A program made the translations under genes and the position numbers. A DNA stretch of 61,878 bases, filler included. It is 13 parts of 13 records of this genome, joined end to end, with 100 filler letters (N's around TTAATTAATTAA, not from the genome) between each part and the next. Parts side by side here need not be neighbours in the genome. Positions count along the whole stretch, not along the records: positions 58,879 to 61,878 come from SRR7504441_67903; 12 more parts are not named here. One strand, 5' to 3'. The notes under the pieces are model-generated. The model saw only the letters and a list, made by a program, of their open reading frames with translations. It was not told the DNA's origin and searched no databases. The stretch's first letter is position 1. Each line of letters opens with the position of its first letter. Shown in pieces: positions 2 through 61,878 of this stretch.

Positions 2-142
2 GTGCTGGTCACCTACAAGGGCCGCGCGCCCAGCCCGCCGCAACCGTCGGCCCAGGGTACTCACATGAAGGCTGAGCTCGAGCTGCTGAAGAAACTCCGT
101 CAAGTACAGCTCTTAGATGTAGATCTAGATCTAAGGCACTAA
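2..142 (+). CDS. 3' end of an unknown protein (5' truncated)
   Basis: Open frame VLVTYKG...AELELLKKLRQ...RH ending in TAA at 140-142, followed by AT-rich intergenic DNA. Confidence 0.35.
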   Translation: MLVTYKGRAPSPPQPSAQGTHMKAELELLKKLRQVQLLDVDLDLRH

Positions 143-311
143 AGAAACTCCGTCACTCCTACACTTCCCATGAAACAATTTATTTACAGAATAGCACAGG
201 TACTAACTTGTAAAAGCTCAGTATGTACTCGTATGTACAAAAGCACTCCACTTTCACGTGTTTCAGTGGTTGTCAACAAGTAGTCGATTGAAACGCTCCA
301 AGCTCACGGCC

Positions 312-6488: not shown

Positions 6489-6588
6489 NNNNNNNNNNNN
6501 NNNNNNNNNNNNNNNNNNNNNNNNNNNNNNNNTTAATTAATTAANNNNNNNNNNNNNNNNNNNNNNNNNNNNNNNNNNNNNNNNNNNN
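6489..6588. other. Artificial contig-joining spacer N44-TTAATTAATTAA-N44 (first of 12)
   Basis: Identical 100-nt spacer with stops in all six frames at 6489-6588, 10452-10551, 17228-17327, 25372-25471, 28887-28986, 32476-32575, 36748-36847, 40381-40480, 45394-45493, 48574-48673, 52506-52605 and 58779-58878. Confidence 0.98.
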
Positions 6589-7362
6589 TCGTTGCCGGAG
6601 CCCTCGCGCGCCGTCGAGCCGGCTGGCCACGCGCTCCAGACGCTGCCGGCCGAGCTCCGGAAAGTGCTGTTCCAGCTGCAAAGAGCGCCGGAGGTGCTGT
6701 TGTATTGTCCGTTGGAGTCGGTTGATTGCCGTTGTGGCAGCTGGTGGTCTGGCGAGCCCCGGCTGACCGGCCGAGCTTTATCTTCGCTGTGTGCGATGGG
6801 TTTGAGAGTAAGCTCGCGGTGCCCGACCCCGTTGCGATCTCGCGACTGCTCGCGGACCCAGTCGGGTATATATATATATATATAGCTATAGTATGGTATA
6901 GCATAGTATAGTATCGCGGAGCTAGCGGGTATACAGCCCGACTATAACGGACATATAACATACAGGTGTATAGGCTCCGAGCAGTATAGTATAGTATATA
7001 GTACAGTATAGCATATACGTGACACGATAACGGACAGGTATATAGGCTCACAGCAGGCGCTGACCGGGACGATTGTTCACTCGATACTAAGCGGCTCGGG
7101 TGCAACGGAAGTGGCCGAGCTCGATGCCAAGCCCAGGATCGAGCGGATCCGAACCGCGGTGCTCTCTTCACTTCCAGACGAGATGTGGCGCCAGGCTTAT
7201 CAATGCTCTTACAAGCACGTTATGGCCGACCTGGAGAGCCCAGGCGATCCGCCAAAGCTAGCCCAAGCGCCGGATAGGGTGGTCCAGTTGGCCAGCCACC
7301 TGGCGGTGTTAATGCTGTCAGATGATAACATTAGCGCTGAGGTGCTGGTGCTAACCCAATAG
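6589..7362 (+). CDS. PP2C-family protein phosphatase, C-terminal part (5' truncated, 2 introns)
   Basis: FIFAVCDG and SDDNISAEVLVL metal-binding motifs. Introns at ~6704-6740 and 6866-7037 restore one reading frame. Confidence 0.7.
6866..7037 (+). other. 172-nt GT-AG intron containing (TA)n/(TATAG)n filler, flanked by a GGTATATA duplication
   Basis: Removing it joins GTC GG|G TAT ATA GGC in frame with the downstream PP2C exon. Confidence 0.75.
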
Positions 7363-8505: not shown

Positions 8506-10451
8506 CTACTGTGCTCGCTGCGCTCGCCGCTTAAGCTTGAGGTCTGTCGTGGCAGCCCACCGCTTGGCTGCGTTAGTTGCCAGCTCGACCGCCCGCGCCC
8601 GCGGGTCGAGCTCGCCACCCGCTCCCCTGCTCGCGCCCCCCGGCGACGAGCTGGCTCTGGATGACCAAAGCGATCTTGATGGGCTGGCCTGTGTCTGATT
8701 GGCGGGCTTGCTCTTGGCTGGCTGCTTGGCCGGTCGGTCAGGTGGGTTGAGGCTGGCCTGCAGCTCTGCCATTAACCGCGAGTTGCGGAGCTTCTCATCC
8801 TGCGTCCAGCCTCGCTCCCTCCCCGGCCCAGGCCACACCTTACGCTTGAGCCGCATCGTCTCCAGCTGAGGCTTCGGGCTCACATCGCGAAGCTCGTCCT
8901 CATCGTCCAACGGACCGACCCATGCTGGCCGGGCCTGCTCGGGACTCTTAACCCTGGCTGACTGGTTCGGGCTCTCTGGACCCTTAGTCTTAGGAGAACC
9001 CGAGCGAGCCGCCCATGCAGGCGCTTCCTTTGGCGAGCCCGACCGATGCTCCGGCCGCTCAGCCTTTGGTGAGGGCGACAAGGAAGACAATGGCGACGGC
9101 GACCGGTGCAGCTGCACTCGAGCAGTGTCGGCCCATTTCTGGCTGGCCTCGGTGGCCGGTCCGTGTCCCTGCTCCCTCTCGGCGAGCAGCTTGGACAGCT
9201 TGAGCTCCTCCGGGCTTTGCCTCGGTTTGTCGAACATTTGTACAAACTGGGCCCTACTCAGCTCGCGGCTGGGCCCACTGCTGGCTGCCCGCGGTCGCTG
9301 CCTCGTGGTGCCAGCCCGGGCTGTGGGCGGCTTAGTGCTGATTGGGTTGGGCGAGGCCGAGCGCTGACGAGGCTGCTGCTTCGGTCGGCGAGCGCGCGGC
9401 TCGTAATTAAGTTGCAGCGGAGGGTCGGCAGGCTGCTGCTTCGGCCTGCGAGCACGGGGCTCGATCTCGGCCGCTCGCTCTCTCTTGAGCGCCTCAATCT
9501 CGCCCGTCATTGCCTGGACCAGCTGGCGGGTCTCCTCGACCTCACCCATCCGCTGCTGCCCCTGCACTTGCAGCTTACGCAGCAGCTCACTGTTACGGAT
9601 ATTTGCCCCATCCAGCAGAGACTGCGCCTTCTGCGCCTCGCCTAGCAACTGATTTCTATGCGCAGCGGTGGCGGCCAGCTGCTCGCTCAGCTGGCCGAGC
9701 TCCTGTTGGGCCTGGGCCAACCCGACGCGCAGCTGGCGCTCGGTCAAACGCTGGTGCTGCTCCCCGCCCTTCCTGAGTTCCAGCTGCTCCTCCTGCTCGC
9801 CCATCGCCATCGCGAGCTCGATCAATTGGCCCTCGAGCCGCTCCACCTTGCCCGACTGCGCAGCCTGCCCGTTGGTCGCCGCGCCTAGTTTCTTCTCGAG
9901 CCCCTCATTCTTCCTCCTGAGCACCTCCAGCCGGTGACGCAGCTCCGCAATCTCCTTGCCCTGCTGCTCCTTACTCTTGGCCAGCTCGTCCCTCTCCCGT
10001 ATCAGCCGCGAGTTCTTGCTCCACAGATTCTTGACTTCGCAGTCCTTTTCCCTCAGATTAGCCTCAACCAATGTCCTGTGATCCTCCGTATCGGCCACCC
10101 GCCCGTGCAGCTTCTTAGTCCTCTGCTCCAGCCCCGCCAGCTTGGCCTGCGCCTGGCTGGCCTCCTCCCTGGCCGCGTCCCGCTCCTCCTCCAGCTCGAC
10201 AGCCCGCTCGAGCAGCTCGGTGTGCTTGGCGTGCAGAACCTCCGTCTGGTGATCTCGCTCAGATAACCGTTGCTCCAGCTGCCCGTGCGCCCGGCGCTCG
10301 GACTCGACCATGTGCCGCAGCCCGGCGATCTCCTGGCCCATCTGCCCCCCCTCCTTCTCCCACTCGCGCAGCTGCCCCTCCAGCCGCTCGTTCTGCTGGC
10401 TGCACCGCCCGAGCTTATCGACAAGATTGACCAGCTCCTCCCCGCGCGCCC
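8506..10451 (-). CDS. Long coiled-coil protein with Ser/Pro-rich tail (5' truncated)
   Basis: >611-aa open frame rich in E/Q/L/K/R heptads, running to the contig edge. Confidence 0.75.
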
Positions 10452-10954
10452 NNNNNNNNNNNNNNNNNNNNNNNNNNNNNNNNNNNNNNNNNNNNTTAAT
10501 TAATTAANNNNNNNNNNNNNNNNNNNNNNNNNNNNNNNNNNNNNNNNNNNNCTGTCACCAACATCTGTGTCGAGGCATCCACGTCCCGCTCGGTCCCGAG
10601 AAGCGCCTGGCTGAACTGACACCGGGTATCAGATCAGCCAACAAGCCGCCTGAAAAAAGCAAAAAGCGCTCGAAACATGGCCGACCTTCAGAGCCATCAA
10701 TGGTCGTGATCTAGCCCACGCATTGCTTAGTCTAGAGCTCTTTATTGTCTTGATGCCAAACATTTGAACCGAGTGGGACACGAACAATGTTAGTGACCGT
10801 GACACGTGCTGGTACTAATGATACCTACATGTATTGATGATAAGTGATATATTTAACGTATACAATCGACGTCCTAGGTGCCATGCACAGCCCCATAATT
10901 ATGAGACATGCCGGTATGACACCAGACCGATATACCCCGATGAACGCATGCAGG

Positions 10955-17627: not shown

Positions 17628-20600
17628 TTATATCTGGTCAGACGGGCTGACTGCTCCTGTTGCAGCACTAGTCTGCCAGGGATATTCATCCACCGCATCC
17701 ATTGGATTGGCCTGGTCCGTGCTCGCAACCAGATCTTTCGGCGAGTTCAAGGTTGACAGTGGCGACAATGTCAATGTTGAGTTTGGAGTGATAGGATCTT
17801 CTTGAGTCGAACGGCTACTGTTGGGAGTCACGACTTGTTCCTCATCAAATAAGCACCTGCACCGCAACCATGCAGGGCAACGTGGCGCGTCATCGGCAAT
17901 GCTGCGCATCTTATCCTTGCCTCGCATAAAGTAGTCCTGCCACACACACAGCCCAGTCAGCCAAATTAGTATGTGTGAACGGCTGGGCACCGGATTGGTC
18001 CATTGGCGCCAGATGCCAAACCCTACCGTAAGCGATACCACCACAGCTAGAACAATGCCCCAGACTAGGCGGCTGTCGCTCTTCGAGCTAAAAGTGCACT
18101 CAACTAGAATCGCAGCAATGGTTGCAAATATGCAGACAGCATACCCATACCGGCGCCAATGGTTCACCCATCGAATCAAGCATGGCTGCGTGTAATACTC
18201 AATAAGAAAGATTGCCACGAGCACTGGAAGGGCCGAAAACAGCATCACTTTGTGATTGGCGTAAAGGAAGAGAGTGAGACCCACAATCAAAATTTTGCAG
18301 ACATTGAGCATCACTAAGTAAGCCGGTTGGTACTTGATATCCAACCCAGGGTCGCCGAACTGGATATGTGGGAACAGAAAGGATGCTGCTGGGAAGTAAA
18401 GCATAAATCCTACACTTGCCAGCGTTACGTACGTGATATGCACCCCCTGCCAACAATCCATGTCTGTGATGATTAGTTGGTAGTCGCTCTGATTTGTAGG
18501 ATAGACGCAAATCAGCATTTGAATCAAGCTCTTGACAATGGGGAAGTACAGACCCGCTGAGGTACATGCAAGCACAATCAAAAAAATCCCCATCAATGAA
18601 AGAACTGGCGCTTCGTTGTTGTTCTCATCCCGGCCCAGCCTTCCTTGTGGGTACTTCTCCGTGTCCTTATCGGTCAGCAGGTGCTGCCCATACCATGCCA
18701 GAACTGGATATAAGACCGCTACTGCAAAGCATGCGAAGAACATCCCAAGATATACTCCAGACCAGGTTAAAGTCAACCCCAAAGCATCAGTGATGTGGTC
18801 GTCATCCTCGTTGGACTCGTCCCACCAGATCCCCGGTTGAAATGACACTGTGAGAAATGCAGCAATATCGAGCACGACAGTGAATGAGTGAACCCAGTTG
18901 CCCGGATAGAACCAGTTCACAGCCAGTATGTCATCTGTGAGTTGACCCTTATCGTCCTGTTCCTTGAGATGGCTCAGCACTTCAACAATGTCATCATACA
19001 ACTGTTTGAGCATATCGTCTCCTTCTGCTTCAGGTGAGGCAATTTTAGCCATTGCACCCTGTCGCCTGATTTCGTCATCCTCAATGTCATCGTTGATTGC
19101 GACGTTCTCAAGAGCCTGTCGAGACCAACCAACTCAAATAAATACTTAGTACGCGAAGAGCCGCAAAACACTATACAAGATTAAGGAATAGCCTACCTCA
19201 TCGATATCTTTACCCGTCGCGCCAGCCAGATCTTTGGCGAAGATGAATGGAGCCAATTCCGACATAAACTGCTGCACTTTCTGTGGGGTCGACCGGCGAG
19301 CTTTGCTGGCTTTGCCCACATTTGCATTCTTGTGGATGTGATTATAGAAAAGCAAGAAAACTGGGTCATCCACCAGAAGCACGCCCTCCATATGCAGGAC
19401 CATTTGATCCTGTAGCTTGAAATTTGATATTACCTCCGATGCACGGACTTTGCGCCACATGCTTTCCCTTTTCCCCTTGAACACATTCGCGACCGCATCA
19501 CCAGCTTGCTCACCAATGTCACGAATCTCTTGGAACCCAGACATAAAGGACTGTCTCAGGCTCTCCTCAGCTGGTTCAGGTCCCTGCTCATCCTCTTGAA
19601 CACCTGCGCTGGTGCCCTGTGGTGCCTCCGGCTGGCTGATGCTAGAATCTCCAGCAGATTGAGGCGACATTTGGTCATCGGTCAGCTGCTCCTGAGACTG
19701 TAAATCACACATTGCTACTGTAGCTTCTATGCGCATGCACGCTTCCAGATGTTCCTTTGCAGCAACCCACTCTGGTGAGCCTTGACGGGTTCGGTTCAAT
19801 TTGTCCTGTGCAAGCTTTGTCTCCATACGTGCCTTTTTTTGCTTGAGTGAGCATTGATCACCAACTGTCAAGACCTGTATAGACCTTCTCAACTCATGGC
19901 GCAGCTGCCCCGATGTGAGCATCAACTCGTCATCAGGTACGGCCTCCTGCTGTGGAGAGGATTGCTGCTGCTCATGCTGCTGAAGCATGGCGAAATAACG
20001 CGTTTTTGCCTTTTCTAGGTCTTTCTTCTTCTGGACAATCAAGCTGTAGTCGCGTACAGCCACTGGCGCCTGCACACTGGGATCAGATGTGGCTACATTC
20101 TAAGAGCTTACCCTAATTGCGTCCAAAAGTTCCGCCTTCTCCTTTGCAACCATTTCTTTGGCTTGCTCAACACGCATTCCCAGCAAAGCTCCTGTGGAGA
20201 CTCTGACCAACCTATTATCTTGATCATCGGTCTGACTTGGAGGCGGCTGAGGAGCTGGGTGCTGTGATGAGGGACTGTCTAACACAATTCGCTCTGTTTC
20301 AGGTTGCACATCTGATACAAGCAGTGCTTCCTCAACTATGGGCTCAATGAACGCATCTCCAGCCTCGCCAGGAGGAGGTAGTGCTGAAGAACTGCGTACA
20401 AAAGAATCTCGGGTTTCAGTATCGTTCCGCATTTGATCCAGTTCAGTTCCAATCTTTGAAATGGCACCCTTGCCCAACCCATATTTGAGTTCTGCAACTA
20501 TGGTGAATAAATTCCAGAATTTGGGGAAATCAAGACCCACATGCATCTCTTTGTACATGGTCCTGAGAAATCCATGCACAAGGGTCGCATCAATTGCGTC

Positions 20601-32575: not shown

Positions 32576-35500
32576 CTGACCTGAGCTCGGTGAGCTCGCT
32601 TTCTGCCTTCTCCTTGGCGGCGTTCGCATCCTCAATCCTGCCTTGCACGCCCTGCTGGGCCGAGGAAACTATCAGCGCCACCGCCTGCAGCTCCTCTTTT
32701 AACCTGCAGAAACACCACATAAGCACTCGCAACCAAAGATGTATCGATAATCAACCTGTCTCTTTCCTGATTCGTTTGCTCCAGCTGAAGCTCAAGCACA
32801 CTCTTGGCCTCCGCCGCCTCCTCAAGCTGATCTTCCAGCCTCTGCCTGGCCACACTACTTCCTTCCAAGTGCTCCGCCAGCGCTCGATTCCGCTCAATCA
32901 GCTCGTCGTGTTTGACAGAGCTTTTCTGGAAGAATTCGCGCTCCTGAATGCTGTTGCGCAGCCTCTGCTGAAGATCGTCCTTGATGGCGCGCGACTGCTC
33001 GTATTCGTCAGCCAGAGTTTCTCTGGCGCTGATGCTGCTTCCAAGCGCCTCCTGCAGGCCCTGGTTGGCAATACTGCTCCCCTCCAGCTTCCGCCGCGCC
33101 TGCACACCAGTCAGAGTCTGTTTCAGTTGGTTTCAGTTACCTCATCCCGGTCTGCAGCCATCTCTGAGAGCGCCCAGGCCTTGGCTTCGAGCGCCTCCTC
33201 CATCCCTGTAGCAACACAGATCACTTCTTTTACGAAGCTAACCGCACCGGTCAGCGCTGTCCTGAGAGACTCATTCTCAGCCACAACCCGCGACAGCTCC
33301 CCCGCAGCCAGCTCGCGCTCAGCCTTGGCCTCCGCCGCCTTCGCCTCGGCTATTTTTACATCGCGTCTGCCTTCGTCGAGCTGATTGCTCACCTGAAACT
33401 CTGTCAGATACAGTTAAGGTCTGGTCAAGGCACCTTCTCCAGGTCCGCGCGGGCGGTGCTTGCTTCCTGGATCCTATGGGTTCGTTCAGCCTCGCTTCTG
33501 GCCAGCTCGATGCGACATTCGGTCATCTGCTGGTTGACCGCCTCTTTCTCTGACGCACACGCCTTCAGCTCGTTGCTACATTCCTGCAGCTCGAGCGCCA
33601 GCCGCTTGCTGTCAGCCGACGACGCGGCTAGTTCTGCAGCGCACTCCTCGAGTTCGCACATCAACTGAGCCCGTTGGCCGTTGGCTGCCTCGTGCTGGGC
33701 CGAGATATCGACCAGCTGAGATTCCAAAGTCTCCTGCGAGAGCTTCAGTTTGGCCAGTTCCAGCTCCAGAGAGTTGCTGGCCTCTGCGTGCTCTTCCGCT
33801 TTCTTCAGAGCTCGCTCAGTCTCAGCGTTCGATTGGTTCAAACTCTCAGCGCTGGTCTTCAGTTGCTGTTCCAGAGAAACTCGCTCAGCGTCGCTTCTGG
33901 TCAGCTCGATGCGAGACTCGTTCAGCTGCTGGCCAACAGCCTCTTTCTCTGACGCGCACGCCTTCAGCTCATTGCTGCATTCCTGCAGCTCGAGGGCTAG
34001 CCGCTTGCTGTCTGCAGATGACGCCGCCAGCTCCTCGGTGGACTCCTCTAGTTCTGCCATCAAGTTATCTCTGTCGTCTCTGCACCGCTTCAGCTCTGCC
34101 AGGCTCTTGCTCAGCTCTGCCTCGCACTGAGCGCCCGTGCCCCTGCATGCCTCCAGCTCCTGACCTTGCTTCGCCAGCTCAGTCTGTGCTGACTCCAGCC
34201 GAGTTTCCAGCCCAGCGAGGTCCGTTGTGCTCTGATTCAGCGCCTGTTGCAGCTGATCCTTGTCTGAACAGACCATCAACAACCGCTCTTCGCACTCAGC
34301 ATTCTCTGAAGCCAGTCGCTCATTGTCGGCGGCACAGCCGTGCAACTCCTCAATGCATTCCCTCAGCTGCTGTGAAGCATGCTCCTTCTCGTCAGTACAT
34401 AATTCCAGCTCGGTCCTGATTCGGTCCAGCTCCGCTTTCGCTGTGGCCAGCTCCGCAGCACAGGCGGCCAGCTCCGCTTGTGTGGCTTCGACTTGGCCTC
34501 TCGAGCGCTCGCCCTCTAACATTGCTGTGTTTAGCATCTGCAGTGTCTGCTCCTGCAACTCGAGTGAGGGTCGCACCTTCCTAATTAGGGAATAGTGGGG
34601 CGTCACACCTGCTTCTCTGCTATTTGCTGTCTTGACGCCCGCAGCTCGTGGCAAGACGCCTGCTCGGCCGCCAGCGACTCGCCCAGTACCTGCGCATTCC
34701 TGGTTTAGGATTCCCTGCTCTGGGAATGTGTTAAGTTAGGCGATTTCCTAATTAGGAAGGCGGTTAACACCTTGCTTAGACCGATCAGCCGGTCGGCGTC
34801 GAGCCCTTCCTGCTGACTTTCCAGCAACCCAATCTGCTGCCTCATCGCTCCAGCCTGAGCCGATGTCGCCTGACAGTCCATTAATTTCCGTTCAAGTCAG
34901 TTGGGCCACCTTGACATTCGCATCCAGCTGGTTCGTTAACGTCGCCATCACGCGAGATTCGGCACAGAGCGCCCCAATCCGGTCGGCCCGGCCTTGCGAG
35001 ACCCGCTCCAGCCGGCCGATCCCCTCGAGTAGCGCCTGGTGCTCCCCCACCGCTTGCTGGATCGCCATTGCGTACGCCCCAGCCTTTTGCCGCCATCCGG
35101 TCGCGTCAGCTCGCAGCTCGTTCAGCTCCTGCGAAATGCTCTTGTTCTGACTTCTGGTCTGCTCGTCCTCCTGGCGCAGACTCCTGTTCTGGCCCCTCAG
35201 CCGGTCAAGCTCGTCCTCCTTCAGAGCGAGCGCCTTCTCCACTTTGAGCACCTGCATGGCCGTTAGATTTCAGTTGGTGTCCGTTGAGGCACCGAGGTTT
35301 GGATCTGGTTTCGCGAGGCTTTGGAGCTCTTTCTCTCAGCCGCAAGACACTCCTCCAACTGTTGTATCTGACCAGCCAACTTGGCCTCGGTGCCCTCAAA
35401 CACCTTAGACTGCTCCTGGATTTTCTGTCCCCCAGACCGGGTTAATACACCTTCCTAATTGGGAAATGCTCTAGTGTAACACTTTCCTAATCAGGCAAGT

Positions 35501-36747
35501 CACCTCGGCGACAAGAGCCAGGTGGTTGTCGTGCTCCGCAGCGGCCGCCACAGCCATCGCCTGCTGCTGCTCCACCTCCGCCACCAACACCTCGCAGTTC
35601 TCCTGCAACTTCACATTCTGCGCATGCAGCGTCTGCCTATCGCGCTCCGCAGTTTGCCTCGCCTCAAGCGAAGCCTTGTCCTCCTCTGAGCGCAGTTGCT
35701 CCGCCTTTGCTAGCTCCTCTCTAACGGCTTTAATGCTGGCTTCGGCCTCGGCGTGCTTCTCTTGTGAGGCGGCACATTCTTGCTGCAGCTGGTCGATCCT
35801 CTGCAGGCGCTGAGCCAGCTTGAGCTCCTGCTCTTTCTGCACCTACCCAGCGGATTATTCCCTAATTAGGAAGAATAGTGTTAACCTCGTTGATGTGCTC
35901 TCGCTCCGCCTTGAGCTGTTTCACCGAGCCCTCTGCACAGCCACAATATCAATCTACCAACACTCCACAGACTCACCTGATTGAAGCAGCTGGTCTTGCA
36001 ATTGGCGACACAGCTCCGTGCTCGCCTCCAACTGTTCCACCATCACCAGCCGCTCCGCCTCCAGACAGTCAGCCCTAGACTTCTCGCTCTCGCCTGCCGC
36101 CCGAAGCCGGCCCGTCTCCTCCTCCAGCTCGACCTGGCGCGTCGCAGCCCGTAGCTTGACCTGCTTGAGCGGTTAAAACCTTCCTAATTAGGCAAGTATC
36201 AGTTAACCTGCTTGAGCCACTCCTGCGACTCCAACAACCCGGCGCATTTCTGGTTGAGTTCGAGCTGCAGCCCGTCGACTGCCATGCGAGACTCCAGCAG
36301 CTGCTCCTTCTGAGCCACAACCATCTCCTTGAGCTTAACTGCCCAGCCGGTCAATTCCAAATTAGGAAGGTGTTACACTAAACTAACTCCTAATTAACAA
36401 GCTCACTCGCTGTGATCTCGCTCTCACGCCGACTTTCCGTCTCGGCTGCAAGCTCGTCAGCGCATTTAGCTTGCTGCAGACTTGAGAAATTAGCCTCGCT
36501 GTCTAGGTGCTGCTGTGTCTGCTGAAGCTGCGCCTGACAGCTCAGGAGCTCAGCTCTGACTGTGTCCAGCTCGGCTGCAGTTGCCTCGTGTCTTGAGAGA
36601 ACAAGCATCTGAGTCTCAACCCTCTCATGCGCCTCTGCGATTGATTGGTTCATCGATACCATGTCTTGCTCTAAACCAAGCACAGCAACGTGGTATTCAT
36701 TCCGTGTCTCGACGGCATCCTCCAGCACGGCCTCGAGCCCCGACCGC
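32576..36747 (-). CDS. Very long coiled-coil protein, intron-rich, both ends truncated
   Basis: Heptad-rich exons spliced through more than 10 short introns; internal ~57-aa repeat (ELAASSADSKRLALELQECSNELKACASEKEAV) at ~33480-33660 and ~33885-34060. Confidence 0.75.
34577..36406 (-). mobile_element. Cluster of six related introns sharing a palindromic TTCCTAATTAGGAA core (introner-like family)
   Basis: Introns 34577-34608, ~34690-34770, 35425-35503, 35843-35885, 36161-36207 and 36339-36406. Cores at 34580, 34747, 35454/35486, 35861, 36183 and 36357/36389. Confidence 0.65.
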
Positions 36748-40721: not shown

Positions 40722-41928
40722 ATGGCGCCGACCGGCGAGGATGTGGAGCCTCCTCGTTCGGCAGCGGAGCCTCCCGTGCCCTCCGAGCCGGGCGGATCCG
40801 ACCCTCCGGTCGAAGGCGAGTTGGCACCTGTGTGACCAGCCACTCATGACAGGCTCTGCAGGCAAGCCAGACGAGGATTCCTTTCACAGACGCCCGACAA
40901 TCCTATCTAGAGGCGACATCCTATCCAGAGGCGAATTTGCTATTCGCAATGTGTCCTGGACGAGCATGTTCATGAAGGACTGGTTTCACCTGCTGTGTGA
41001 GAAAAGCGTGTTTGAGCTCCTTCTTATGTACTGCCTTGGTTACGCAATCATCATTCCGCTATTGGCCTTTCTCATCTGGCTGTTCACTCAGGTGAATGCT
41101 ACTGACATTGTCCCTGGTGAGAATGACCAGCTTGTCGAATCTGTGGCCTGAGAGCTGGGCGCAGATGGTTCCTTCCAAGAGTGCATGAAGCTGTCGTGGC
41201 AGTCACTTACAACCATAGGGTACGGTGGCACACGGCCAGAGGGGGCTGGGGACAACATCGTCATCTGCTTTTTCACTATACTCAACCTTGCCTACGACGC
41301 TGTCTGCATTGGTCTCTTCTGCACTCGGCTGTCCCACCCACATGCTCGAGCACAAGACGTGAGCTTCTCGAGCCGTGCATGCGTCTGCCACGCTCAGCCT
41401 GGCAGGCCAATTCGGCTTGAGCTCCGCGTGCAGAACAGATTCATCCGGGCGTTTGTTGATCCATTCATTAGGCTACACATGATCCGCTGGCACTCGGGCG
41501 CCGATGGAAGGAGTCGCGCATGCTTCGAGTTCCACGAACTCCCCGTCGCCAACCAAAGTGGAACCTCCGGCGTGTTTGAACCTGTGGCGTTCCTGCAGTA
41601 CCCGTGGTCCGTGCTTCACCACATTGACGAGACCAGTCCACTTGCCCCGTACGTGTCAACCGACGCCAACAACAAGCCTGTCGTGACTGAGGCTTGGTCC
41701 CGTGACTCTGTGGAGATCCTCGTCACGATGACCGGCACCAGCTATTCTACAGGCAACATTTGTGAGGCCCGGTGTTCGTACCTCCTGGACGACGTAGACT
41801 TCGGCCACCGCTTTATGGACATGCTCGTCTTTGACCAGGAAGGCGTCCTCGAAATGGATGATCCGAAGAAGCTGAGCTTAACAGAACCCGAGGACCCGAG
41901 TAATTTGCAGCTCCCAGAGTGCTTCTGA
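40722..41928 (+). CDS. Inward-rectifier potassium channel (Kir family)
   Basis: KDWFHLL slide helix, SWQSLTTIGYG filter, VSFSSRA, HHIDETSPL, EILVTMTG, ARCSY and GHRF. Introns at 40816-40852 (GC-AG) and 41117-41164. Confidence 0.92.
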
Positions 41929-58506: not shown

Positions 58507-58878
58507 AATTCGGTTCATTAAAGAGTTTTTGAACCTATACATGTACTTGTATCTAGTCTAGTATCATTGTTCCGAGATGAGGTGTACCTAGATCTACGTT
58601 TACTCAGTACGTTGCAGTACGTTGTACGAGTATTGTACAGTACTTGCCGGCCCCCACGAAGTCCGTTGCTGCTGAGTGCTGACCTACAGGGCCACCCGCA
58701 ATGTCCTGGTTCTCCTCCGGAAAGGAGGAGGATGCGGAGGAGCCCACCGCGGAGGAGCCGCCAGCGGAGGAGCCGCCANNNNNNNNNNNNNNNNNNNNNN
58801 NNNNNNNNNNNNNNNNNNNNNNTTAATTAATTAANNNNNNNNNNNNNNNNNNNNNNNNNNNNNNNNNNNNNNNNNNNN

Positions 58879-59206
58879 ACGTAGAGTGTAACATGGTCGA
58901 ACGTACCATAAGTGCGAGTACGCGCAGCGTCGGGTGTGTCACCTCAACGAACGGTCGCGCGGACACCATCTGAACTCGCTGCGGCGTCGGGCGGACCAGC
59001 AGCTGCGGCGTCGGGCGCGTGAACGCGGATTTGGGTCGCGAGTCGTCAGACGAGTTGTGTGCGACGACCCGCTCGCTCGGCCGGTCCATCTCAACGCGCG
59101 GGTCCGATTCCAGGCTCCTCCCAGCCTCCGAGCTTAAGGCTTGCTCGGCCAACGGCCCAGGCTCCGACATGCTCGCCCGGGGCGCTGGGCCAACTTGGAG
59201 GCTCAT
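58879..59206 (-). CDS. 5' part of an unknown protein (3' truncated)
   Basis: ATG-initiated frame open to the contig edge, with an RPTPQ repeat. Confidence 0.4.
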
Positions 59207-59296
59207 GGTAGGGGCACACGCGGTTACAGTCCCGCCACGAGCTCGCGTAATCACCCAAGCCACGAGATTTTCATTGTGCCAAAAGTTTAATAATCA

Positions 59297-61476
59297 TTAA
59301 TTACTCAGATACTTGTCACATCCTCGTGCAGAGGAGCCGTCAGCAAGCACCTGATTCGGTCCTGGCGATTGCGAATCGGGAGCATGATCTGGAGTCAAAC
59401 ACACCGCCGCTGACAGCCCGTAGAGTACAACGTTCTTGGTTGAGAACGCTTGGGGGAAACTGAGCAGTCCGATCTGGCTGTACCGTTGGTCTCGCTCCAG
59501 CCTGCTGATCCTCCCCGCATTGAGCAAGTGCATCGCGCCCGCCATCGTCTCGAGCTCATCTTGGTCTGCCACCGACCGGAGCAGCTGCAGCTGCTTTGGG
59601 CTGAGCGGGTCCCATCCGGCTGACCTGCGCGCCCGCTCAGTGCGCCGGCCAGGCCGGTGGGTGCCTGGGGACCAGCTGCTGGTGTTTGCTGAAGCAGCAG
59701 GTGCACACCTGCCGGAAGCGGCTCGACTGAATTTAGTGCAGCCAGCCACCAGGAAGCTGCATCCGTGCCGCCGGGCCAGTGCCAGGCTCAGATCAGCCAG
59801 CCCACCGCATGCATGCAGCCCGACCACCAGATGCACTTGCTCTAGGTCGAAGCTGCTCGCACATCGGTGCTCGAGTGTCAGGTTGGTCAGCCCAAGAGCC
59901 TCCGCAGACCGGCGGACCAACTCCAGCGCGCCATGATTCACATCCACTGCGGTCACCTACGGACAATCAGTGGAGTCAAGCAGGGCTGTGCCTGCAGCTT
60001 TGGAAATCTGTGCGCTAGGCGGAGCGCGAGGTCGCCCTTGCCTGCCGCGAGCTCAATTATGTACTATACTATACTAGCTATACCATACTATACTGTGCTA
60101 TGCTATGTATACGATGGGCTAGGGAGGGTCGCCCTTGCCTGCCGCGAGCTCAACTACGGAGACAACCCCGGGCCGATCGGTTAGGATCCGCTCGATCTGG
60201 CGCATCATCCAGTGCACCTGCTGCTTCTTCCGGTTGTTGTACAGCTCGCCACTCCGGTGGGCCCGTCGCCTCTTGCTTAGTCTAATGAAGTCCGACTGTT
60301 CCTCTGCGACCACTGGCCGACGAGCCGACGGCTCCATCTCGCCCCAACTCTCAGCCGCCTCCTCGCACTGCACCCAGCCTCGGCCTGGCTAGACAGCGGC
60401 TCACCGTCCGCTCGATCACCGGCCAGCGAGCAGCGACGTGGCTAAGGTCTGCGAGTGCGCGCCGCCATTCGCGCGCCTGCTTGGCTTCCTTGTTGGACCG
60501 TGGTACCGCTGCCGCCACCGCCTGGGGCCATCCCATCCCGGACCGCCGGAGCAGCAGGATCTCGAGCACAGTATGCACGTTCAGACTATCGTGCGCCACC
60601 TGGCCAGCCAGCGGGAGAGAGGCAGCCACCAGCCCAAGCTCGCTCGCCCGCCTCAGCGAGCAGCCCTTGGCGCCGCCCTCTGTATTGGCGTCCTCCAGCC
60701 CCCCAATCACCACTGCCGCTGCATTCTCCTCCAACTCGCCCTCGTACACCGCCTCGGCGTCCGGAGATAGGTAGACGCCCCCCGTGAGGTCGGGCGGCGC
60801 CTCGGACCACGCAGCCCCGGGGGTGCCGCGCTTGCAGCCGGGCCCCTTGAGCGCCAGGGCGGCCTGCTTGAACTGTTCCGAGTGGTTGACGAAGATCAGC
60901 TGGACTGGGCGAGGCCCAAACTCGTTGGCCGAGGCGCACTGCTCCAGCTGACGCGAGAGATGCTTGAGCTGCGCCCCAGACATCAGCTGCTCGTACCCGA
61001 GGTCCACGTACACGCGCAGCCCGCCCGCAGTCGCCGCGGCCAGCGCTGCCTGCTGCCGCTTTTTGAAACCGCCTGCCCGGCCCGGGTGAGCCCGCGTGGG
61101 GGCTCGGAGGGCGGCCTGCGCGGTCGAAACTGACCCGCGAGTTGGGCTCCAGCGCGAGGAGCTCGTTCAGCCGGCCGGTGTAGATCGCCCCCCAGTAGCC
61201 CGGCCGGCTGGCGGCCTGACGCAGCTTGGTCAGCTGCCGCTCAAAGCTCCGCTGCTGGGCGTTTGGAGCACTACTTGGAGCTTGAGGAGCGCTGCTGGCC
61301 TCCATCAATGTCCGTTGCCTGGACTGCACGGCCCTGACCATCATTCTGGAGGCCCGCCGTGCCCGGCTCTTCGACAGCCCCTCAAAGTCCGAGTACAAAT
61401 TGTGGGTGCTGTGTCGGCCGGGGTCGTGTCTACAGTCGTTCTTTTTGAGTATCTCCCACCCGGGTACCCGGGCCAT
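59297..61476 (-). CDS. Fusion of a Trm10-type SPOUT tRNA methyltransferase and a class I (GSTCD/Methyltransf_32-like) methyltransferase
   Basis: Trm10: VYVDLGYEQLM, LSRQL, VYLSPDAE, VIGGLED, SLPL, LNVHTVLEIL. Class I: RKKQQV, VVELAAGKGDLA, VTAVD, VVGLHACGGLAD, FSTKN. A 37-nt GT-AG intron (~60369-60405) joins them in frame. Confidence 0.8.
60042..60138 (-). other. 97-nt GC-AG intron formed by a 27-bp exon duplication plus (TATAG)n filler
   Basis: GGTCGCCCTTGCCTGCCGCGAGCTCAA occurs at 60030-60056 and 60127-60153. Splicing CAG|GC...CAG|GC restores ELAAGKGDLA. Confidence 0.8.
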
Positions 61477-61844
61477 CGCTCACTGCCCAGCGCCATTCCT
61501 CTTTTTTTTGACTCCGGATCAGCTTTAATTAAGCCCAGCGCCATTCCCAACGCTCAGCCCGCGCGCGCGGATTTTCATTAACCCTCTCCCTATAGAGATG
61601 GACGCCCGGGTAGAGTTAGGTCCGGGTAGAGTCAGCCCACTAGACAATTTATCATTGTAATAAAACGCCTTGATTTTAAAAAAACTGACAATGGGGTTCA
61701 ACACCGTGAACCATCAAACATATGACTTAATTAAAAGATGATCATAAAAGATGTGAACCATAAAAGATGTGAACCAGAAAGGCAAACGAAGTGTCTGAGT
61801 GCTCCAGCGTCCGCTCTCCCTTACCTCTCCCTCGCCCTTGCGTC

Positions 61845-61878
61845 TCACTTGCCTTTGCCTTTGCCTTTGCCCTTGCCC
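61845..61878 (-). CDS. C-terminal (GK)n tail of a gene extending beyond the window
   Basis: (TTGCCY)n on + translates on - as GKGKGKGKGK followed by TGA. Confidence 0.4.
   Translation of the reverse strand, partial: GKGKGKGKGK

Follow-up and report, generated by a model that had tools for sequence, protein, structure and literature searches.

A possible newly formed GC-AG intron between long direct repeats in a methyltransferase gene of an uncultured marine protist

Introduction

Recently gained introns whose mutational scars are still intact are rare, and they are the main evidence on how introns originate. In populations of Daphnia pulex, the portion of the study used here describes 33 cases of neo-introns from staggered double-strand breaks, with exon/intron direct repeats of 4–12 bp (PMC4202315). 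Introners, as presented in the sections of PMC9860276 drawn on here, occur as multi-copy families with duplications of 3–9 bp and often with terminal inverted repeats, and families in Florenciella sp. carry neither splice site but co-opt both from the site of insertion. Duplication across an AGGT motif can, according to the excerpted parts of three further studies, make an intron of gene sequence alone (PMC3265369, PMC4974935, PMC2891723). Here we describe a 61,878-nucleotide (nt) stretch of DNA (the window) in which a 97-nt insert, flanked by a long direct repeat, interrupts the predicted S-adenosylmethionine (SAM)-binding motif I of a gene that joins a Trm10-type domain to a Methyltransf_32 domain, and we compare this locus with the systems above.

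The insert resembles the Daphnia neo-introns in that unrelated DNA lies in an exon, bases of the exon end are repeated at the far end, and the source of the filler is obscure. A direct repeat around filler and absence from homologues, the two marks of a staggered-break neo-intron, are both found at the locus; however, the repeat measures 27–30 nt, beyond the 4–12 bp given in the portion of the Daphnia study used, and introns were established there by presence and absence among populations, whereas absence is known here from the homologues of other organisms (PMC4202315). With introners the insert would share the principle that insertion plus target duplication gives an intron and leaves mRNA length unchanged, and the candidate intron would likewise take both of its splice sites from the insertion site. 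In contrast to the introners in the sections consulted (PMC9860276), its duplication is 3–10 times longer and its filler is without inverted repeats, so that the insert shows neither a 3–9-bp duplication nor terminal inverted repeats. As in the AGGT introns of the excerpted accounts, both sites would be copied from a single exonic proto-splice site and splicing would restore the message, but here non-genic filler makes up 67–70 of the 97 nt, and the proto-splice site reads AG/GC, not AG/GT (a slash marks the exon–intron boundary). Tandem duplication of an AGGT site was rejected as the origin because this non-genic filler separates the copies. By analogy, the 97-nt insert would work as Daphnia neo-introns and introners do, and would differ from them by its 27–30-nt duplication and its GC donor.

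Results and discussion

A long direct repeat around AT-rich filler

Two copies of a perfect 27-nt direct repeat, GGTCGCCCTTGCCTGCCGCGAGCTCAA, lie at 60030–60056 and 60127–60153, with a start-to-start spacing of 97. With one mismatch the repeat extends to 30 nt (29/30 identical, AATTA versus AACTA; Table 1), and the filler between the copies is accordingly 70 nt long, or 67 nt with the longer count of the repeat. This filler has a G+C content of 37–39%, versus 59% in the flanks, and Tandem Repeats Finder describes it as 9.2 copies of a 5-nt unit with 78% matches. The combination of repeat and filler is far beyond chance: block-shuffling the window 100 times produced no direct repeat of at least 16 nt at a distance of 20–250 nt, while the real window has one of 27 nt. 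There were no inverted repeats in 59800–60400.

The gene lies on the minus strand, with an ATG at 61344, and the insert falls within motif I of its Methyltransf_32 domain, where the glycine-rich VVELAAGKGD encoded by the upstream repeat copy is the predicted SAM-binding motif. On this strand CAG/GC occurs in the upstream copy at 60139/60138 and the CAG of the downstream copy ends at 60042/60041. Left unspliced, the frame runs into ...GDPP and a TAG at 60121–60119, four codons past the repeat. A variant genetic code was ruled out as a rescue, since an insert of 97 nt breaks the frame no matter how the stops are read.

None of the eight homologues aligned with the restored product has an interruption in motif I, and this product runs gap-free against them through ELAA/GKGD, both junctions included. 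The closest relative, P0003, a 139-aa open frame on a 2080-nt contig, is 55% identical and reads through motif I without a break. The upstream exon (RKKQQVHWMMRQIERIL...) aligns with the segment that precedes motif I in the relatives, and therefore both sides of the insert belong to one ancestral exon. The insert is absent from homologues of other organisms, and in the runs examined no contig bridges the site without it. A sequence-only reading of this DNA had described a perfect 27-bp repeat around 70 nt of TATAG-rich filler in motif I, an unspliced frame that stops at 60119 and, as an inference, a very recent intron gain to be compared with orthologues; coordinates, repeat identity and translation all agree with it, the stop is where it was placed, and the eight uninterrupted homologues together with the 27/27 identity of the copies bear out the youth of the insert. 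We are highly confident that the insertion is real, derived and very young.

In a representative protein library the last exon has 70 relatives; the best share 55–59% identity with it, and an identical protein is not among them. Attempts to find the spliced product, or one identical to it, gave no matches for the last exon among 'longer' proteins, for the upstream exon among proteins of 'near' length, or for the first 74 residues of the last exon at 'near' lengths, and a search of metagenome contigs for the genomic loci of the relatives returned 598 pattern matches but no relative; P0001 and P0003 stem from a different source.

The favoured course of events would be as follows. A short piece of foreign, AT-rich, (TATAG)n-like DNA would have been inserted very recently into the exon for SAM-binding motif I, duplicating 27–30 nt of the target. 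By chance, the duplicated target contains a proto-splice site, CAG/GCAAGG, so that the upstream copy offers a GC donor that is highly complementary to canonical U1, while a CAG acceptor stands in matching register in the downstream copy. Excision of 60138–60042 would then return the mRNA exactly to its sequence before the insertion.

Ways of excising the insert

We listed all GY...AG segments whose removal brings the upstream and downstream frames together with no stop. Twenty such excisions exist, 12 with GT donors and eight with GC donors. Among them the 97-nt segment 60138–60042 (CAG/GCAAGG...GCGGCAG/G, phase 1) is the only one that leaves exactly one copy of the repeat. The candidate fits the form of a GC-AG (U2-type) intron: it begins with GY, closes with AG, keeps the frame, gives a product free of stops and has a near-consensus donor. 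Scored against a profile built from 28 homologues, the restoring GC-AG excision of 97 nt reached 124.5 bits, with GT-AG excisions of 91 nt (124.6 bits), 94 nt (124.1), 100 nt (122.8), 106 nt (118.8) and 103 nt (117.2) and a GC-AG excision of 91 nt (119.4) around or below it; the unspliced, truncated product reached 17.0 bits. The register had previously been called the only clean rescue, which holds in the sense that no other GY-AG excision leaves a single copy, but not in the sense of open frames, given 20 stop-free options and two GT-AG products that score equally.

The textbook donor consensus is CAG/GTAAGT, and GC donors are usually near that consensus outside position +2. Counted by eye, the donor at 60138 (CAG/GCAAGG) agrees with it at 7/9 positions, the RNA-verified donor of the same gene at 60404 at 5/9, and the rival GT donors at 60157, 60154, 60163 and 60166 at 2–4/9. 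Judged by such matches, site quality favours the GC register over the GT alternatives. Also read by eye, ACATAAT and ATTGAGC, which may be branch-point-like, lie at about −19 and −12 from the acceptor; the motifs of this kind in other introns of the window are TTAAC, TTGAC, CTGAT or TAATC. Pairing the GC donor with a TAG acceptor at 60064 leads to a stop (by eye).

Fifty nucleotides further downstream, the gene is interrupted by a 35-nt intron (59991–59957) for which all three frame-keeping solutions use GC donors. Its excision keeps the spacing between GD and, 13 residues on, V.x[VI]D (here VTAVD) seen in the relatives P0005, P0008 and P0011. Since only GC solutions exist, the organism, if the gene works, must be able to splice one GC-AG intron or more, the known one lying 50 nt from the candidate. 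The earlier statement that GC donors are frequent in this genome could not be substantiated: the 35-nt intron is the sole other junction that requires GC. A GT donor suits the intron verified by RNA, the six members of an intron family on another contig and two introns with in-frame stops read by eye. Two automatic surveys of pairs of open frames proved unspecific, as nearly all pairs, antisense ones included, admit both GT and GC solutions, and they yield no frequency.

In P0003, residues 47–59 are 13 extra residues (VTSTPELALQCMQ) that sit exactly at the position of the window's 35-nt intron; their first codon is compatible with GT and their last residue is Q, which can be CAG. They are probably a retained in-frame GT-AG intron of 39 nt, to judge from this sequence, and on that reading the intron position is shared and the donor type differs. 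The introns of the bin are tiny, about 35–85 nt. In-frame stops within short GT-AG-like segments also split long frames at about 20060–20102, 19150–19200 and 41090–41151, the third less clearly; the clearer two read AGG/GTAAGC...GTGCAG/G and GAG/GTAGGC...CGACAG/G.

RNA and DNA coverage

A search of public runs listed 23, of which five are recorded as RNA and none holds half of the stretch's words. Four of the 23 were compared with 59300–61500: X1, labelled 'DNA?', and the RNA runs X6, X10 and X18. An RNA contig of X18 joins 60367 to 60405, skipping 37 nt that run from GT to AG on the minus strand; the gene is therefore transcribed, and spliced at this 37-nt intron. RNA contigs of X10 (59348–59595) and X6 fall on other exons. 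One further RNA contig of X6, 35 nt long (60062–60093, depth 50, one other letter, one gap), was discarded as microsatellite not assignable to a locus.

On the DNA side, an X1 contig (59925–60090; gap-free, one other letter) includes, besides the downstream exon, the 35-nt intron in unspliced form and the whole downstream repeat copy, followed by 34 nt of filler. It crosses from copy into filler, and so places the downstream junction in separately assembled reads, although X1 may be the source sample. The duplication that the sequence-only reading would have expected in raw reads is in this way supported at its downstream repeat–filler junction, with the upstream junction uncovered. One contig each of X1 and X6 carries a 1-base insertion (T) behind 60076 in the filler.

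Weighing the readings

Splicing of the 97 nt, use of the GC-AG register for it and the mode of insertion are matters of inference; taken together, a newly made GC-AG intron, with both splice sites from the target duplication and spliced to restore the message, is in our judgement an even proposition. Several points weigh against it. No RNA contig of X6, X10 or X18 lies over 60114–60187, so that none crosses the insert and the joined form is absent from RNA contigs, and the upstream junction in the same interval rests on the bin's own assembly at about 3x depth. Nineteen other in-frame, stop-free GY-AG excisions exist, two of the GT-AG type equal the candidate on the profile, so that a restored protein is no mark of the GC register in particular, and several TAG acceptors stand in the (TATAG)n filler upstream of the proposed CAG. 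The variant behind 60076 may mean that the length of the tract is not fixed, in which case the true length of the microsatellite may differ, or that similar tracts exist elsewhere. The insert is so young, with no difference in 27 nt, that the intact downstream frame says nothing about selection. An unspliced gene would, moreover, keep its whole Trm10 domain, and a disrupting insertion could thus be tolerated. Such an insertion, unspliced or mis-spliced, would be a null or truncated allele that yields a Trm10-only protein (...ELAAGKGDPP and stop) and is too recent to have decayed; the stop four codons past the repeat, the complete domain upstream of it and the undiverged copies all suit this account, as does a similarly shaped event 1.4 kb away, in non-coding DNA, that has no splice register, which shows the process not to be tied to the making of introns. 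We nevertheless hold it to be rather unlikely, because CAG/GCAAGG, as a GC donor, comes close to the consensus and a weaker one is required in this gene 50 nt further downstream, and because the X1 contig passes unbranched from repeat into filler at a depth of 3.2 (versus 2.9–3.8 in the gene), with no sign of a co-existing intact allele, although at this depth the evidence is weak.

Splicing might instead follow a GT-AG register, for example 60157–60064 (94 nt) or 60154–60064 (91 nt), by which the second copy (ATA ATT GAG CTC...) would become the coding motif I in a protein reading ...VVS(V)YIIELAAGKGD. Both excisions are in frame and stop-free, their 124.1 and 124.6 bits stand beside the 124.5 bits of the GC register, and the remaining introns inferred in the window are compatible with GT donors. 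Their donors, TCC/GTAGTT and GTA/GTTGAG, match the canonical consensus at only 4/9 and 2/9 positions by eye, however, and their acceptor is one of several identical TAGs in a row, so that precise use of just one of them is unlikely; we give these registers little chance. Equally improbable in our view is an artefact of assembly, in which the two copies and the filler were never one molecule or a longer insertion has collapsed. The material invites the suspicion, being a low-coverage binned metagenome of 13 short concatenated contigs with a depth of about 3 in the best public DNA run, contigs that break inside the microsatellite and no independent support for the upstream junction. Yet an independent k-mer assembly of X1 has a single contig in which the downstream exon, a complete 27-nt copy and 34 nt of filler are joined, an error in the assembly graph would share the 27-mer once and not duplicate it around filler that requires the repeat at either end, and three more structures of repeat plus filler in the window argue for a biological process.

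The Trm10–Methyltransf_32 gene

The features of the gene and of the similar events are collected in Table 1. The exon 61073–60405 matches the Trm10 structure 4jwf_A (E 1.2e-10) over the whole domain, query residues 7–193 aligning with chain residues 19–208; Pfam PF01746 gives the same exon 17.7 bits (E 0.003), below the cut-off of 27.3. Against Methyltransf_32 (PF13679) the last exon alone scores 26.9 bits, at a cut-off of 27, over profile positions 57–135, and the relatives P0003 and P0005 score 49.3 and 56.7 bits over positions 21–135. The restored product aligns with both relatives along its whole length and is predicted, from its sequence, to contain a Methyltransf_32 class I methyltransferase domain. 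P0005 (627 aa) has the same layout, with a long N-terminal part ahead of this domain. The last exon had no match in the Protein Data Bank (PDB), nor did NCBIfam return anything for the exons of the window.

Table 1. Features of the gene that carries the insert, and events of the same shape elsewhere in the window.
Feature	Positions	Strand	Remarks
Trm10-type SPOUT exon (tRNA guanine-9 N1-methyltransferase)	60405–61073	-	4jwf match
37-nt GT-AG intron	60368–60404	-	skipped in RNA contig of X18
Upstream (5', coding) repeat copy	60127–60156	-	encodes VVELAAGKGD (predicted motif I); CAG/GC at 60141–60137
Filler	60057–60126	-	about 27 nt unmatched elsewhere in window (60100–60126); rest degenerate (YATAG)n
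Downstream repeat copy	60030–60059	-	CAG 60044–60042 = candidate acceptor; 60041–60030 opens next exon
Candidate GC-AG intron, 97 nt, phase 1	60042–60138	-	excision would restore a single repeat copy
50-nt exon	59992–60041	-	encodes (G)KGDLALRLAHRFPKLQ
35-nt intron, GC donor only	59957–59991	-	CAG/GCACAG...CCGTAG/G
Last long exon, 3' limit provisional	59297–59956	-	rest of Methyltransf_32 (GLHACGGLAD motif) and C-terminal region
Same-shape event	61485–61547	.	perfect 15-nt repeat GCCCAGCGCCATTCC; 33-nt filler, 30% G+C, containing TTAATTAA
Same-shape event	86–155		17-nt repeat (16/17); 36-nt filler, 38–39% G+C, near-palindrome (22/24)
Same-shape event, clean intron	36156–36217	-	15-nt repeat (14/15), CAG/GT in register; 32-nt filler

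The stretch itself consists of 13 contigs of 3–8 kb strung together with spacers and is therefore a binned assembly. The spacers number 12, each of 100 nt (N44-TTAATTAATTAA-N44), the first at 6489–6588 and the last at 58779–58878, so that genes that adjoin in the window may be unlinked or come from different organisms. The methyltransferase gene with the insert lies on the last piece, 58879–61878. Part of the stretch occurs in 20 of the 23 listed runs, all labelled as aquatic, marine, seawater or sediment metagenomes, and the source of the gene is an uncultured marine protist. Look-ups for context gave no Rfam match and, with ARAGORN, no tRNA in the window, and a protein-atlas query with the aldehyde dehydrogenase yielded no informative taxon.

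Similar scars elsewhere in the window

Direct repeats of at least 11 nt within 250 nt of each other number 30 pairs in the window. Four of these, the insert included, enclose filler of no more than 40% G+C in G+C-rich flanks. One of the other three (61485–61547) is on the same contig as the insert, about 140–200 nt upstream of the ATG at 61344; it has no AG/GY in register and is not an intron. The event at 86–155 likewise has no AG/GY in register. The event at 36156–36217, in contrast, contains a clean 47-nt GT-AG segment, 36207–36161 (GCTCAAGCAG/GTTAAC...GCTCAAGCAG/GTCAAG), and its excision joins ...ESQEWLKQ to VKLRAATRQVELEEE..., two coiled-coil frames, in one. This clean excision implies that, in the bin, one or more introns that look functional have been made by an insertion that duplicated a long piece of its target.

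The same coiled-coil gene holds seven short intron-like segments (34580–36366, minus strand; contig piece 32576–36747) that share a palindromic core, CCTAATTAGG, written in full as (T)TCCTAATTAGGAA(G)GT. A GT donor of the GTGTTAAC or GTTAAC type lies 14–19 nt upstream of the core, and all six guessed donors of the family have frame-compatible solutions of 47–79 nt. On the strength of these shared motifs the segments look like an introner-like family that brings its own donor. The 97-nt insert and 36207–36161 have in common a repeat with a CAG/GY-type register, AT-rich filler and a frame-restoring excision; they differ in that the core-bearing introns are a seven-copy family with a palindromic core and their own GT donor, whereas the 97-nt insert is without the core. 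The contigs 32576–36747 and 58879–61878 may come from different organisms.

A further structure lies at 9370–9463, in the minus-strand open reading frame 8506–10503, where a 34-nt direct repeat (88%) surrounds a 26-nt filler containing TAATTAAG. The unit is 60 nt long, in frame and free of stops, and reads as 20 duplicated residues (EPRARRPKQQP...). Possibly this is an earlier such event that was kept as coding sequence.

Origin of the insert

Within the window the filler resembles only a (TATAG)n tract at 6887–6914 (27/28), with which it shares a 16-mer (6887–6902); its 27 non-repetitive nt match nothing there. The surrounding region, 6869–7017, lies between two plus-strand frames, possibly within an intron of about 350 nt, and holds two (TATAG)n tracts, each followed by a similar unique segment ending in GGCTC..AGCAG. 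Membership of the filler in a mobile family was also considered: a scan of metagenome contigs with an extended pattern returned only two loci, both long generic (TATAG)n satellites on AT-rich contigs. As the shared order of variants occurs also in such unrelated long satellites, the resemblance is not evidence of a common element.

Across the four events of the window the duplications measure 15, 15, 17 and 27–30 nt. Such variation argues against a transposase with a fixed stagger, and fits either the repair of a staggered break with captured filler or the target-primed reverse transcription of a 5'-truncated element with a simple-repeat tail. Reverse splicing or intron transposition was rejected because it would leave no target duplication. 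The sequence-only reading had proposed staggered-break repair or duplication; a direct repeat with filler does fit break repair, but one locus does not decide between this, target-primed reverse transcription and a transposon.

Conclusions

Were the insert left unspliced, it would be an ordinary disrupting insertion in a binned metagenome assembly. If it is spliced, both splice sites would derive from a single exonic proto-splice site by way of a 27–30-nt target duplication, with a GC donor placed in a catalytic motif, so that the domain would not survive any imprecise cut. Exon/intron repeats would then be known over a wider range than the 4–12 bp and 3–9 bp given in the portions used of PMC4202315 and PMC9860276, and the locus would point to a route of repair or retrotransposition with long staggered cuts.

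More tentatively still, and with some doubt on our part, this lineage may harbour an active insertion process that leaves unusually long (15–30 nt) and variable duplications on either side of short AT-rich fillers and mints introns wherever the target holds an AG/GY. If so, the four events of the window (60030–60156; 36156–36217, by now a clean GT-AG intron; and, in non-coding DNA, 61485–61547 and 86–155) would be its products, and the 97-nt insert would be the youngest, caught before divergence of the copies and before fixation of splicing. Together they would show, within one uncultured marine protist, successive natural stages that lead from a raw insertion to an intron that is established.

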